Source: Escherichia coli (lineage in GTDB: Bacteria; Pseudomonadota; Gammaproteobacteria; Enterobacterales; Enterobacteriaceae). From it: DNA of 64,000 bases. Each line of letters begins with the position of its first letter. Within the stretch, counting starts at the first letter, position 1. Positions 9,930-16,379 of this stretch are shown piece after piece. Position numbers and translations under genes: made by a program. Under the pieces are notes generated by a model, which made no database searches, was not told the DNA's origin, and saw only the letters and a list, made by a program, of their open reading frames with translations. The DNA is taken from assembly GCF_016903815.1 (NCBI RefSeq), contig NZ_CP069973.1. One strand, written 5' to 3'.

Positions 9930-12176
9930 CTATAACCCTCCGCGAATCAGCCCGCCCATGCCGCGACGCTCCATAAAGGCTGCAACCTGATGGTGAACTT
10001 CGGTCGCCAGTTGCGCTTCCAGACTACGCTGCGCAAGATTTTCTGCTTCGGCATAATCAATGCGCCGCAGCAGGTATTTTACCCGCGCTACAGAACGTCC
10101 GTTCATAGACAGATGGCGATACCCAAGCCCAATGAGGATTGCCACGCACATGGGATCGCCCGCCATTTCACCGCACAAACGGAGATCGATTCCATGTATT
10201 TCCGCTTCCCGGGCGATCATCGCCAGAGCTCGTAACATTGCAGGATGAAGACTGTCATAAATGTTCGCCACCCGGGTATTGTTGCGATCAACGGCCAGAA
10301 TGTATTGAGTCAGATCGTTGGTGCCAACAGAGATGAAATCGACCCGCTTTGCCAGATGCGGCAGCATAAATACCATTGACGGCACTTCCAGCATGATGCC
10401 GATACGTGGTTTGGGAATTTCGTAACCGATCATCTCCTCGACTTCACGTCCGGCACGTTCAATCAGGCGGCGTGCTTCATCAACTTCATCGAGGCTTGTG
10501 ACCATCGGCAACAGAATATTCAGGTTGCCCGTAGCGGCATTAGCACGCAGCATCGCCCGCACCTGGATCAAGAAGATCTCCGGCTGATCGAGCGTAATGC
10601 GAATCCCACGCCAACCCAGGCATGGATTCTCTTCGCTGATCGGCATGTAAGGCAGCTGCTTATCTGCTCCGACATCCAGCGTACGCAAGGTGACGGGTTT
10701 ATCATTGAACATTTGCAGCATCCCCTGATACTGCGCCACCTGTTCTTCTTCCGACGGGAAACCACTTTGCAGCATGAATGGGATTTCAGTGCGATAAAGA
10801 CCGATGCCATCAATACGGCTGCCCAGTTTTTCTTCATGTTCCGGGCTTAAACCAGCATTGAGCATGACTTTTATACGCTCACCGCTTTTTAACTGCGCGG
10901 GTAAATTGACGTCATCTTCCGCCAGACGGCTAAGCTCAATCTCTTCACTAATTAGCCGCTGATATTCTTGCAGCAGTACCGGCTCCGGATCGACCAGCAA
11001 TTCACCGCGATAGCCATCAACGATCAGCGTCCTACGATGCAGCACCGAAGGCTGAATATCCGCGCCCATCACGGTAGGGATCCCCAGCGCACGTACCATG
11101 ATCGCAGCATGGGAGTTGGCTGCGCCATCTCGCACGACAACACCGACTAAGCGATCCTGGGGCAGCTCAGCAAGAGTTGTCGCTGACAGTTCATCTGCCA
11201 CCAGAATGAAACGTTCCGGCCAGGCGTTCGGCCCTTGATTAGCGTCATCAAGATGAAACAGCAATCGCTGACCCAGCGCACGTAAATCGCCAGCCCGCTC
11301 TTTGAGATAGTTATCGCTTAGCGCGGCAAACTGTTCGGCAAATTTTTCAATGACCGTTTTTACCGCCCACTCTGCCACCGAGCCTTTATCAACCTCGGCA
11401 AACAATTCGCGACGCAGCCGGGTGTCCGAAAGCAGGTGCGAGTAAAGATCGAAAATAGCCGCCGTTTCTTTTTGTGCACCGGCGGCAAAGCGTTTGCTGT
11501 AGCGGCGAAACTCGTTTGCCGCTTCTTCCAGCGCCCCGGTCAGTCGTTCGCGTTCCAGAGCCGGATCCAGCGTTGATGCCTGATACACCTGTTCCATTAA
11601 AGGTAACGTGGCATCCTGCCAGCCTTCGGCAATCGCCACACCAGGTGCTGCCGGTAATGCGCGGATTCGCGTCTGGCGATATTGCCCAAACAAGGCAGTC
11701 AACTGCGACTGAGAAAGAATAGCTGCCATCTGGGTGGCAAGCGTCACCAGGAAGGATTCTTCACTTTCGTCATACTGGCGCAACTCTCGTTGCTGTACCA
11801 CCAGTACACCAAGCAACTGGCGACGTTGAATAATTGGTACGCCTAAAAACGCGCGGAAACGTTCTTCTTTTACGGAGGGGATGTATTTGAAGCTGGGGTG
11901 CTTTTGCGCATCTGCAAGGTTTATCGGTTCCGCCAGCCTGCCAACCAGGCCGACGATCCCTTCATCAAACGCGAGCGTTACAGTGCGACCGCGTGGTTTT
12001 TTCAGCCCCCGGGTCGCCATCAGGTAGTAACAACGTCGATCATGATCGGCCAGGTAGACCGAACAGACCTCGGTATCCATCGCAAGACAGATGTCGGTAA
12101 CCAGAATATTTAACGCCTCATTCAGGCGTGGTGCGCTGGCTACCTTTTCGACTATTTCGCGCAGGCGAGTGAGCAT
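9930..12176 (-). CDS. ptsP: Phosphoenolpyruvate-protein phosphotransferase PtsP (nitrogen-PTS enzyme I, GAF-domain)
   Basis: 748-aa ORF with an N-terminal MLTRLREIVEKVASAPRLNEALNILV (GAF region) and a C-terminal enzyme I domain. Confidence 0.92.
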   Translation of the reverse strand: MLTRLREIVEKVASAPRLNEALNILVTDICLAMDTEVCSVYLADHDRRCYYLMATRGLKKPRGRTVTLAFDEGIVGLVGRLAEPINLADAQKHPSFKYIPSVKEERFRAFLGVPIIQRRQLLGVLVVQQRELRQYDESEESFLVTLATQMAAILSQSQLTALFGQYRQTRIRALPAAPGVAIAEGWQDATLPLMEQVYQASTLDPALERERLTGALEEAANEFRRYSKRFAAGAQKETAAIFDLYSHLLSDTRLRRELFAEVDKGSVAEWAVKTVIEKFAEQFAALSDNYLKERAGDLRALGQRLLFHLDDANQGPNAWPERFILVADELSATTLAELPQDRLVGVVVRDGAANSHAAIMVRALGIPTVMGADIQPSVLHRRTLIVDGYRGELLVDPEPVLLQEYQRLISEEIELSRLAEDDVNLPAQLKSGERIKVMLNAGLSPEHEEKLGSRIDGIGLYRTEIPFMLQSGFPSEEEQVAQYQGMLQMFNDKPVTLRTLDVGADKQLPYMPISEENPCLGWRGIRITLDQPEIFLIQVRAMLRANAATGNLNILLPMVTSLDEVDEARRLIERAGREVEEMIGYEIPKPRIGIMLEVPSMVFMLPHLAKRVDFISVGTNDLTQYILAVDRNNTRVANIYDSLHPAMLRALAMIAREAEIHGIDLRLCGEMAGDPMCVAILIGLGYRHLSMNGRSVARVKYLLRRIDYAEAENLAQRSLEAQLATEVHHQVAAFMERRGMGGLIRGGL

Positions 12177-12188
12177 AATTGGCGTGAC

Positions 12189-12719
12189 TTAACCTCTTTT
12201 ACGTCGATAAGCAGATGCGTTTTGTGGTTTTGGCGTATTTTCCTGCAGTGACATCACCACACTCGCGAACTCTTTCATTACCCTACGGTAGACATCACGT
12301 TTAAATGACACCACCTGTCTGACCGGATACCAGTAACTTACCCATCGCCAGCCGTCAAACTCTGGTGTACTGCTGGTTTGCATATTGATTTCTGCATCGC
12401 CGCTCACCAGCTGCAAGAGAAACCATTTTTGTTTTTGGCCGATACAAACCGGCTTCGTGTCCCAACGCACCAAACGTTTCGGTAATTTGTAGCGCAACCA
12501 GTTACGCGTTGAAGCAAGGATTCGAACGTCTTTGCGGCTTAATCCTACTTCTTCAAACAATTCACGGTACATCGCCTGCTCTGCGGATTCTCCGGGGTTG
12601 ATTCCGCCTTGCGGAAATTGCCAGGAGTGCTGACCAAATCGCCGGGCCCACATTACCTGCCCCTGGCGATTACAAATCACGATACCTACGTTTGGGCGGT
12701 AGCCATCGTCATCAATCAC
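12189..12719 (-). CDS. rppH: RNA pyrophosphohydrolase (Nudix hydrolase RppH/NudH)
   Basis: 176-aa [30 protein letters not shown] and the Nudix box [23 protein letters not shown]. Confidence 0.93.
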
Positions 12720-12859
12720 CGGACTACCTCAATATAAAGCTTTATATATGAATGATTGTTTCATACTCCAGGAAGACGGTAAACCACTCTCTGCAGGGCA
12801 TTACACACTAATAACAATTGAATAACTCACAGTTATGTGCAGAGTTATAAACAGAGGAA

Positions 12860-13230
12860 GGGGTGGATAGCCGTTTTTATTCACCTTTTCTGTGGATAGA
12901 GTTGTGAAGAACTACGGAATTACTACGGGAAAACCCGGAGCATTCTGAATAAGCCCGATATAGACATTTTAAAATATTCATTATCAGTCAATGCATTACA
13001 TGTAATTTTAGTAATGAAAAAGAGTAATTCGTGACCCAGGTCACACCTCTCATTTACGGGTTGGCGAAAGATCAATCAATGCCGTATTTATCCACAGAAT
13101 GTGCCACTAAGTTAAGCACTGAACCACTAAAAACTGGAGTTTCGTCGCACGTCAAGGCTGTAAATGGAAACAGTAGTGGAGGTTTTTCACAGTTATCCCA
13201 GCTTTCTGTGGATAACATGGTGTAAGATCC
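12860..13230. promoter_or_regulatory. DnaA-box cluster in the rppH-mutH intergenic region, consistent with the DARS2 DnaA-reactivating sequence
   Basis: Perfect DnaA boxes TTATCCACA at 13088..13096 (+) and 13207..13215 (-), and an 8/9 box CTATCCACA at 12891..12899 (-). The literature places DARS2 between ygpD (rppH) and mutH. Confidence 0.65.
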
Positions 13231-13403
13231 TGTTTATTTTCAGTGACCAGATTTGGAAAACCCGTTGCAGTGTTGCGCAACTCGATTACCGGCAACCTAA
13301 AAAGCAATATAAATCAGAGAATTGAACAACGCATGTGGAAAAAGTTACACTGCGAATATTCGGCACATAATTGCTGTTTGTTTTTTAATCAAGGTATCAT
13401 GAC

Positions 13404-14093
13404 ATGTCCCAACCTCGCCCACTGCTCTCTCCTCCCGAAACTGAAGAACAGTTGTTAGCGCAAGCACAGCAACTTTCTGGTTATACATTGGGAGAACTGG
13501 CGGCACTTGTCGGGCTGGTTACGCCAGAGAATTTAAAACGCGATAAAGGCTGGATTGGCGTGTTACTGGAGATCTGGCTAGGTGCCAGCGCAGGGAGTAA
13601 ACCTGAGCAAGATTTTGCTGCTCTGGGCGTGGAACTTAAAACTATCCCTGTGGATAGTCTTGGTCGTCCGCTGGAAACAACATTCGTTTGTGTTGCCCCG
13701 TTAACGGGCAATAGCGGGGTGACCTGGGAAACCAGCCACGTGCGCCACAAACTCAAACGCGTACTGTGGATACCGGTTGAAGGCGAGCGCAGCATCCCGC
13801 TGGCGCAGCGTCGCGTTGGATCACCGTTGCTGTGGAGCCCGAATGAAGAGGAAGACCGGCAGCTACGCGAAGACTGGGAAGAATTAATGGATATGATTGT
13901 TCTCGGTCAGGTTGAGCGGATTACCGCTCGTCACGGGGAGTATTTACAGATACGACCGAAAGCAGCGAATGCGAAAGCGCTTACCGAAGCCATTGGTGCC
14001 CGGGGCGAACGGATTCTGACGCTGCCACGCGGCTTTTATTTGAAGAAGAATTTCACCAGTGCACTACTGGCCCGTCATTTTCTGATCCAGTAG
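13404..14093 (+). CDS. mutH: DNA mismatch repair endonuclease MutH
   Basis: 229-aa [41 protein letters not shown]. Confidence 0.94.
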
Positions 14094-14161
14094 CCATCGC
14101 TTTGACCTGCCGCTTTCCGGGCATATAATTACCGCTTCATTTTTTTGGCAGGGCTTTTTAG

Positions 14162-14875
14162 ATGTTATTTGCATGGATAACCGATCCTAACGCCTGGCTT
14201 GCGCTCGGTACGCTGACGCTGCTGGAGATCGTTCTTGGGATCGACAATATTATTTTCCTTTCTCTGGTGGTGGCAAAGCTTCCCACAGCACAACGTGCTC
14301 ATGCGCGCCGTCTGGGGTTGGCGGGAGCCATGGTTATGCGTCTGGCGCTGCTGGCATCAATCGCCTGGGTTACGCGCCTGACAAATCCGCTTTTTACAAT
14401 ATTCAGTCAGGAAATTTCTGCCCGTGACTTGATTCTGCTTCTGGGTGGCTTGTTCCTTATCTGGAAAGCCAGCAAGGAAATCCACGAATCCATTGAAGGT
14501 GAAGAAGAAGGGCTGAAAACACGCGTTTCATCATTCCTCGGCGCTATCGTGCAGATTATGCTGCTGGATATTATCTTCAGCCTCGACTCGGTGATTACCG
14601 CTGTGGGTCTGTCAGATCACCTGTTTATTATGATGGCAGCCGTGGTGATTGCCGTAGGCGTGATGATGTTCGCCGCGCGCTCGATTGGTGATTTTGTCGA
14701 ACGCCATCCTTCGGTAAAAATGCTGGCGCTCTCTTTCCTGATTCTGGTGGGCTTTACCCTGATTCTGGAAAGTTTCGACATCCACGTACCGAAAGGTTAC
14801 ATCTACTTCGCGATGTTCTTCTCTATTGCGGTTGAAAGCCTCAACCTGATTCGCAACAAAAAGAACCCGCTCTGA
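14162..14875 (+). CDS. ygdQ: TerC-family / UPF0053 inner membrane protein
   Basis: 237-aa polytopic membrane ORF directly downstream of mutH, as in K-12. Confidence 0.8.
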
Positions 14876-15012
14876 TACTCCGTACGCTCTCCTGCGGGAG
14901 GGCGTACTCACTCCTGTTACCCTCACAGTTTAAGATTTTCCTGCTTTCAAGATATATAACGTCAGTTTATAAACAGACTATTATCATAGGTGGGCCAAAT
15001 GAGGATAACCGG

Positions 15013-15231
15013 ATGAAAAAATGGGCAGTAATAATTTCTGCAGTCGGACTGGCGTTTGCTGTTTCCGGGTGTTCCAGTGATTACGTCATGGCGACCAAAG
15101 ATGGCCGTATGATTTTGACCGATGGAAAACCTGAAATTGATGATGATACCGGGCTGGTGAGTTATCACGATCAGCAAGGTAACGCGATGCAAATTAACCG
15201 TGATGATGTTTCGCAAATTATTGAACGTTAA
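15013..15231 (+). CDS. ygdR: Small lipoprotein YgdR
   Basis: 72-aa [27 protein letters not shown] contains a lipobox (VSGC). Confidence 0.8.
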
Positions 15232-15338
15232 CAAATAAGGTCAGCATCCGGCTGGCCTTAAGATTTTTCTCTTTCCCTTTTCCCTTCCCTCTGCCATTTT
15301 TATATTCCTTATGTCGTGATTATAAAAAGGAAACGGCT

Positions 15339-16379
15339 ATGCAATATCACCGTATACCCCACAGTTCGCTGGAAGTCAGCACGCTGGGGCTTGGCACGAT
15401 GACGTTTGGTGAACAGAACAGCGAAGCCGACGCCCACGCACAACTCGACTATGCCGTCGCTCAGGGCATTAACCTTATCGACGTTGCCGAAATGTACCCA
15501 GTACCTCCGCGCCCCGAAACGCAAGGGTTAACCGAAACCTACGTCGGCAACTGGCTGGCGAAACATGGCAGCCGCGAAAAGTTAATTATCGCCTCCAAAG
15601 TGAGCGGACCGTCGCGCAATAATGACAAGGGCATCCGCCCGGATCAGGCGCTGGATCGGAAGAATATCCGCGAAGCGTTGCATGACAGCCTCAAGCGTCT
15701 GCAGACTGATTACCTCGATCTTTATCAGGTGCACTGGCCGCAGCGCCCAACCAACTGCTTCGGCAAACTCGGTTATAGCTGGACAGATTCTGCGCCTGCG
15801 GTTTCGCTGCTGGATACGCTGGACGCACTGGCAGAGTACCAACGAGCGGGAAAAATTCGTTATATCGGCGTGTCGAACGAAACTGCATTTGGCGTAATGC
15901 GCTACCTGCATCTGGCGGACAAACACGATCTGCCGCGCATTGTCACCATTCAGAACCCTTACAGTCTGTTAAACCGCAGTTTTGAAGTAGGTCTGGCAGA
16001 AGTCAGCCAGTATGAAGGGATCGAACTGCTGGCCTATTCGTGCCTGGGTTTCGGCACGCTGACCGGGAAATATCTCAACGGTGCAAAACCCGCTGGCGCA
16101 CGTAATACGCTCTTTAGTCGGTTCACCCGCTATAGCGGTGAGCAAACGCAAAAAGCCGTCGCGGCGTATGTTGATATCGCCAGACGTCATGGACTGGATC
16201 CTGCTCAGATGGCGCTCGCTTTTGTACGTCGTCAACCGTTTGTTGCCAGCACTCTGCTGGGCGCAACCACGATGGAGCAGCTGAAAACTAACGTCGAAAG
16301 TTTGCATCTGGAGTTGAGCGAAGACGTATTAGCTGAAATTGAAGCGGTGCATCAGGTTTATACGTATCCTGCACCATAA
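15339..16379 (+). CDS. tas: Aldo-keto reductase Tas (NADP(H)-dependent)
   Basis: 346-aa ORF; MQYHRIPHSSLEVSTLGLGTMTFGEQNSEADAHAQLDYAVAQGINLIDVAEMYP is an aldo-keto reductase fold. Confidence 0.9.
   Translation: MQYHRIPHSSLEVSTLGLGTMTFGEQNSEADAHAQLDYAVAQGINLIDVAEMYPVPPRPETQGLTETYVGNWLAKHGSREKLIIASKVSGPSRNNDKGIRPDQALDRKNIREALHDSLKRLQTDYLDLYQVHWPQRPTNCFGKLGYSWTDSAPAVSLLDTLDALAEYQRAGKIRYIGVSNETAFGVMRYLHLADKHDLPRIVTIQNPYSLLNRSFEVGLAEVSQYEGIELLAYSCLGFGTLTGKYLNGAKPAGARNTLFSRFTRYSGEQTQKAVAAYVDIARRHGLDPAQMALAFVRRQPFVASTLLGATTMEQLKTNVESLHLELSEDVLAEIEAVHQVYTYPAP

Follow-up and report, generated by a model that had tools for sequence, protein, structure and literature searches.

The founding paper on DARS is said to be that of Fujimitsu in 2009, and the element has reportedly been dissected ever since. 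DARS2 is a main source of regenerated ATP-DnaA and helps to set the timing of initiation in E. coli. According to the literature, ADP-DnaA would bind a 35-bp core in which DnaA boxes I and II face each other at a distance of 5 bp and box II is separated by 3 bp from box III. A head-to-head AAA+ contact between the DnaA molecules on boxes I and II is reported to release ADP, after which apo-DnaA would leave the DNA and bind ATP. For its activity the core is described as requiring both the bending of IBS1-2 by IHF and the presence of Fis on FBS2-3; the IHF bend would bring Fis to the core-bound DnaA, and negative supercoiling is proposed to stabilise both IHF binding and the loop. At high levels of ATP-DnaA, the protein would nucleate on box V, spread over the sites V-a, V-b and V-c and evict Fis, thereby switching the site off in a negative feedback. 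Both the IHF- and Fis-dependent release of ADP and the effect on initiation come from the K-12 literature. In the published description of the core, box I points against box II, 5 bp lie between them, and box II of DARS2 has a single mismatch. Deletion of the DARS2 core leads to fewer origins per mass and to reduced fitness. The companion element DARS1 lacks, according to the literature, an IHF- or Fis-dependent regulatory region.

The rppH–mutH spacer

We analysed a 64-kb window of the E. coli chromosome (the window being the whole stretch of DNA studied, 64,000 nucleotides), of which positions 9930-16379 encode ptsP (- strand), rppH (- strand), mutH (+ strand), ygdQ, ygdR and tas. Of the two DnaA-reactivating sequences that the E. 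coli chromosome possesses, the non-coding stretch between rppH and mutH is almost certainly DARS2. In the literature DARS2 is located upstream of mutH, and the stretch occupies precisely the rppH (nudH/ygdP)–mutH intergenic location. The first-pass annotation had described the locus as DARS2-like from its position; the position agrees, and we have very little doubt that the element is DARS2 itself rather than something resembling it. The outline of the locus is as follows.

12189..12719, - strand: rppH (left flank)
12854..13308: DARS2, published 455-bp fragment, bounded by primers MutH-4 (12854-12872) and MutH-2 (13290-13308)
13404..14093, + strand: mutH (right flank)

The spacer measures 684 bp (12720-13403, between the rppH start at 12719 and the mutH start at 13404) and has a G+C content of 38.7%, as compared to about 50-57% in the flanking genes. 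It had been portrayed as an AT-rich, non-coding spacer of roughly 680 bp, which is right in length and composition and also in substance, except that RefSeq places a 48-aa ORF, ygdT, inside it. As had been anticipated, gene-centric annotation misses the element, giving the spacer only this doubtful ORF, and recognising DARS2 marks the spacer as functional DNA. An Rfam scan of 12500-13600 with E-values up to 1 returned no match, hence no known RNA accounts for the conservation of the spacer. A scan for promoters and terminators yielded a single promoter-like site, near mutH, as well as two sites resembling terminators, against 0.7 expected from shuffles.

To place the published element, the primers and oligonucleotides printed in the DARS2 papers, including the Kasho 2014 supplement, were mapped onto the window. 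All of them match exactly, apart from the FBS2-5 52-mer, which carries one substitution, and the primer-bounded span 12854-13308 comprises exactly the 455 bp of the published fragment. The core-deletion primers omit exactly 12877-12911, the truncation primer MutH-11 ends at 13086, as does the minimal element, while MutH-17 ends at 13065, and the substitution primers locate box IV (12944-12952), box V (13088-13096) and box VI (13207-13215). The span of 12860-13230 originally delimited for the cluster thus falls within DARS2 but begins 6 bp inside the published element and ends 78 bp short of it on the right.

Alignment to the published element and scans for IHF and Fis consensus sites had been proposed as checks in the first-pass annotation. 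Besides the exact boundary primers, the alignment gave 454 of 455 identical positions between the DARS2 fragment and K-12 MG1655. Across the entire spacer, 681 of 684 positions agree with MG1655, and one of the three differences (13076) is inside DARS2. The spacer is 100% identical to that of E. coli strain 7/2 and is found in 5424 of 5426 complete E. coli genomes. The consensus scans pointed to the published sites as well, with matches falling on IBS1-2, FBS1 and FBS2-5. Every published DARS2 site is present in the window, in its identity, its position and its integrity, and from their sequence the sites of this strain would be expected to work as in K-12. DARS2 as such is an already known element, so that its identification here carries no novelty.

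Core, IHF and Fis sites and box V

The individual sites of the published element, with the exception of box VI, are arranged from left to right as listed below.

12877..12885, + strand: core DnaA box I, TTATTCACC (8/9), positions invariant in six genera
12891..12899, - strand: core DnaA box II, CTATCCACA (reads TGTGGATAG on the + strand; 8/9), 5 bp from box I and opposed to it
12903..12911, - strand: core DnaA box III, TTCTTCACA (8/9), 3 bp from box II in the same orientation
12944..12952, - strand: DnaA box IV, TTATTCAGA, flanked by substitution primers Ksh-30 and Ksh-31
12970..12998: IHF sites IBS1 (12970-12982) and IBS2 (12986-12998), 3 bp apart, equal to the published IBS1-2 oligonucleotide
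13022..13036: Fis site FBS1, a perfect GnnYAnnnnnTRnnC; oligonucleotide FIS-1U matches 13014-13044
13058..13109: FBS2-5 fragment (published 52-mer, one substitution)
13066..13086: essential 21-mer with FBS2-3, bounded by MutH-11 and MutH-17
about 13067-13075, about 13077-13086 and about 13100-13108: low-affinity boxes V-c, V-b and V-a, placed from substitution oligonucleotides
13088..13096, + strand: DnaA box V, perfect TTATCCACA, the first perfect box of the first-pass annotation
13264..13278: Fis site FBS6, published sequence GTTGCAGTGTTGCGC, non-essential

The 35-bp core at 12877-12911 reads TTATTCACC ttttc TGTGGATAG agt TGTGAAGAA and displays the layout that characterises a DARS core, boxes I and II being opposed over 5 bp and box III having the orientation of box II. 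Box III is part of the 'double box' gTTCTTCACAactCTATCCACAg described in the ChIP work. Three DnaA boxes had been reported at the outset, at 13088-13096, 13207-13215 and 12891-12899, and all three are there. The 8/9 box among them is core box II, but its partners, core boxes I and III, had been overlooked. Likewise, the two perfect boxes that had received most of the emphasis are real, but they are boxes V and VI, with a regulatory or dispensable role outside the exchange-active core. Box IV is not conserved outside E. coli. A further DnaA-box-like sequence, CTATCCACC at 12862-12870, has two mismatches and is not conserved in other genera; we did not count it as a site.

Between the core and the Fis sites lie the two 13-mer IHF sites, separated by 3 bp as in published DARS2, each having one mismatch to either IHF consensus. 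The distance of IBS1-2 is 58 bp to the core and 67 bp to the essential 21-mer, which fits the published description of the IHF sites as 'about equidistant' from both. FBS1 has been reported to be non-essential. FBS2-3 is present by sequence within the essential 21-mer, and binding of Fis to it is predicted. Box V is a perfect box accompanied by V-a, V-b and V-c, its flanks being those of the published FBS2-5 fragment except for position 13076.

At this position, which falls into the essential 21-mer (FBS2-3), the window has T and K-12 has C. When the surrounding 76 bp (13045-13120) were compared among 5423 complete E. coli genomes, 36 had exactly the allele of the window and 3597 that of K-12; T13076 is a rare allele in E. 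coli, and its presence in this strain is one of the additions of the present analysis. Within the Fis motif the base is an 'n', outside the consensus, and a T is likewise found in Serratia and Yersinia. We observed in addition that T13076 improves the match to the IHF core consensus (AATCAATGCCGTA, one mismatch).

The spacer contains only two GATC sites (13070 and 13226), both of them within conserved blocks, namely AAAGATC of FBS2-3 and TAAGATCC adjoining the box VI triad. Both are retained in five of the six genera that we compared (see below), and a role of Dam methylation or SeqA at these two sites is conceivable from their sequence context.

Published in vivo data can be related to this map. 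DnaA ChIP-seq in MG1655 gave three peaks in DARS2, with 78x, 199x and 213x enrichment. In window coordinates (offset 2,956,258; NC_000913.3 numbering) the peaks lie at 12866, close to the core, at 13048, close to box V, and at 13243, close to box VI. The footnote of the ChIP table names NC_000913.2, but its DARS1 coordinate fits the bioD-uvrB spacer in NC_000913.3, and we therefore used the latter numbering. The strongest of the three peaks has the box VI triad as its nearest site.

Conserved blocks and core triads across genera

We compared the E. coli spacer of the window with the rppH-mutH spacers of Pantoea, Enterobacter, Serratia, Yersinia and Photorhabdus, six genera in all. The spacers were aligned with MAFFT and also stacked without gaps; because the AT-rich IHF region proved unreliable in the MAFFT alignment, we relied on the gap-free stack, which is justified by the identical spacing. 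The conserved blocks occur at the same distances from box I in all six genera, the only deviation being a 1-bp shift in the right part of the Yersinia spacer.

Offset -54 from box I: TAAnTCACA
Offset -33: GTTATnAACA
Offset 0: core
Offset +190: AAAGATC of FBS2-3
Offset +211: box V; TTATCCACAG invariant in six genera
Offset +274 (Yersinia +273): GTCAAGGCTG
Offset +316: TTATCCnA-N6-TGTGGATAA
Offset +346: TAAGATCCTGTT

The offsets of 211, 274 and 316 bp correspond to approximately 20.1, 26.1 and 30.1 helical turns, which puts these blocks roughly in helical phase. The DNA between the blocks has diverged across the genera, including box IV, FBS1 and most of IBS1. Several features of the right half and of the left flank come to the fore in this comparison.

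12822-12832: invariant left-flank block ATAACTCACAG, outside the 455-bp fragment
12843-12853: invariant left-flank block AGTTATAAACA, containing TTATAAACA (12845-12853), an 8/9 box
13151..13173: invariant block GTCAAGGCTGTAAAT..AA.CAG, not a DnaA box
13183..13191, + strand: TTTTTCACA, an exact TTWTNCACA, not conserved in other genera
13193..13227, + strand: second core-like triad, TTATCCCAG, 5 bp, TGTGGATAA, 3 bp, GGTGTAAGA
13207-13215: box VI, TGTGGATAA, located from primers Ksh-34 and Ksh-35; the second perfect box of the first-pass annotation

The first part of the right-half invariant block (13151-13161) reads GTCAAGGCTGT. Further to the right, box VI forms the centre of a triad whose arms are TTATCCCAG at 13193-13201 and GGTGTAAGA at 13219-13227. 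This box VI triad is near-invariant in the six genera and represents the second-best match to the core architecture in the window, with 5 of 24 positions mismatched, as compared to 3 for the core and 6 for the best unrelated site. In a multicopy-plasmid assay, the right half and boxes IV to VI were dispensable (Kasho 2014). The conservation of the right half in both sequence and spacing suggests a function that was missed by this assay. What the present comparison adds is that the sequence and spacing of the right half and of the left flank are kept just as rigidly as those of the core. We tentatively raise the possibility, which we regard as rather unlikely, that DARS2 is larger and more constrained than the published minimal element and includes a second functional module. 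Such a module, if it exists, could be a second exchange site, a platform for loading or titrating DnaA, or a means of coupling to mutH transcription.

The core architecture extends well beyond the rppH-mutH spacers. An exact scan of representative genomes for TTATNCAC-N6-TGTGGATA-N4-TGTG matched at least 120 stretches, with about 2 expected by chance (19 specified bases, ~6e11 positions). Five of the listed loci are the rppH-mutH spacers of Pantoea, Enterobacter, Serratia, Yersinia and Photorhabdus, and the architecture is widespread in Gamma- and Betaproteobacteria, far beyond Enterobacterales. Of the 120 matches listed, 18 precede a divergently oriented priA, about 11 precede uvrB and 6 precede xseA, and 7 are found beside hemW. 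With uvrB, mutH and xseA, the gene always lies downstream of box III on the same strand. Pseudomonas has two recurrent triad loci among the matches listed, and many genomes have exactly two triads among these matches, for example one of the priA type together with one of the xseA or hemW type, echoing the pair of DARS1 and DARS2 in E. coli. Our literature search (for DARS-like elements and for DARS together with priA) returned no description of DARS-like elements outside the close relatives of E. coli. A further addition of this analysis is a triad that is widespread in Gamma- and Betaproteobacteria, often occurs twice per genome and adjoins repair and restart genes.

A separate observation concerns Legionella nagasakiensis, where the DnaA-box triad forms part of a repeat that is some 330 bp long and has at least five copies.

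Legionella nagasakiensis repeat copies, by locus and position: L057, 1421; L059, 3951 (- strand); L061, 2219 and 4870; L063, 3154

The repeat starts CGTCAAGACTGT...TGGTAAGAT, a sequence that resembles the enterobacterial right-half blocks; given that about 0.1 CGTCAAGACTGT-like matches are expected by chance, we treat this resemblance as one that may be coincidental. An Rfam search of three loci carrying the repeat found nothing.

Alternative readings and related regulatory loci

Other readings of the locus draw on features of its mutH side and on the annotated ORF.

13072..13218, - strand: ygdT, RefSeq 48-aa ORF overlapping boxes V to VI
13334-13342, - strand: exact box TTTTCCACA, outside DARS2 and not conserved in other genera
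13344-13371, + strand: the only sigma-70-like promoter match upstream of mutH, its -35 hexamer abutted by the TTTTCCACA box

The boxes might mainly constitute a promoter region through which DnaA controls mutH, rppH-ptsP or both, with nucleotide exchange being secondary. Such a role would agree with the position of the TTTTCCACA box next to the -35 hexamer, with the fact that in many taxa the triad precedes the repair genes uvrB, mutH and xseA in the same orientation, and with the listing of uvrB among the DnaA targets described in the ChIP-seq paper. We nevertheless consider it improbable, because published deletions and substitutions tie the core, IBS1-2 and FBS2-3 to phenotypes in replication initiation and ATP-DnaA, the core is more than 490 bp away from the mutH start, and both the promoter-proximal box and the promoter-like site lack conservation in other genera.

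It is less probable still that the conservation of 13072-13218 reflects a small protein, YgdT, to which the boxes would be incidental. RefSeq does annotate ygdT in nearly all E. coli genomes, but in Enterobacter, Serratia, Yersinia, Pantoea and Photorhabdus the start codon is absent or the frame is broken by stops, and the conserved blocks fall on box V, on the invariant block and on the triad around box VI. We rejected ygdT as a real gene on these grounds; given that its frame is not conserved in the five genera, it is probably a spurious gene call over regulatory DNA, and the conservation at 13072-13218 is that of the DNA sites.

A sink comparable to datA, titrating DnaA or promoting hydrolysis of DnaA-bound ATP, is an explanation to which we give hardly any credence. 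The locus does share with datA a non-coding cluster of high-affinity DnaA boxes with an IHF site and a very high DnaA occupancy, the ChIP signal being as high as at datA. However, deletion of DARS2 lowers the number of origins per mass and partly suppresses the datA phenotype, the opposite of what the loss of a sink would do, and it is only in DARS that boxes I and II are arranged head to head. datA, which lacks the head-to-head triad, has the opposite activity, namely hydrolysis of ATP-DnaA.

Chance clustering was judged against 5000 dinucleotide-preserving shuffles of the spacer itself. Perfect TTATCCACA boxes occur only twice in the 64-kb window (0.35 expected), 119 bp apart, and a pair of them was reached in the spacer by one of the 5000 shuffles (mean 0.012). 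The four exact TTWTNCACA matches in the spacer were reached by none (mean 0.14), and its ten matches with at most one mismatch by a single shuffle (mean 2.5). No other region of the window is as dense in DnaA boxes as the spacer, which has 10 matches per 684 bp versus a median of 1. The core triad pattern has a single occurrence in the window and none in shuffled sequence. Although TTWTNCACA is not over-represented in the window as a whole (8 versus 5.7 expected), as would suit a fortuitous cluster of DnaA-box-like words in AT-rich DNA, four of these eight matches fall within 255 bp of the spacer, and this explanation, to which we assign practically no probability, is refuted by the shuffles, by the uniqueness of the triad and by the conservation of the sites in six genera.

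Read as DARS2, the locus can be set beside its described relatives. It shares its position and flanking genes with K-12 MG1655 DARS2 (NC_000913.3, about 2,969,112-2,969,566; Fujimitsu 2009, Kasho 2014, Miyoshi 2021, Kasho 2025), and boxes I to VI, V-a to V-c, IBS1-2 and FBS1 to FBS6 are all present; it differs by the C to T exchange at 13076 within the essential 21-mer. DARS1, located in the bioD-uvrB spacer, has an identical core layout of box (+), 5 bp, box (-), 3 bp, box (-), which in MG1655 reads TTATCCACT, 5 bp, TGTGGATAA, 3 bp, TGTGTATTA. The two cores are identical at 24 of 35 bases, and box II is a perfect consensus in DARS1, whereas that of DARS2 has one mismatch. Box V with its satellites V-a to V-c is reminiscent of the DnaA-oligomerisation region of oriC, where high-affinity consensus boxes nucleate ATP-DnaA on low-affinity flanking boxes and which likewise binds IHF and Fis. 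In contrast to oriC, DARS2 has neither a duplex-unwinding element nor a replication start, and its core uses ADP-DnaA in a head-to-head arrangement.
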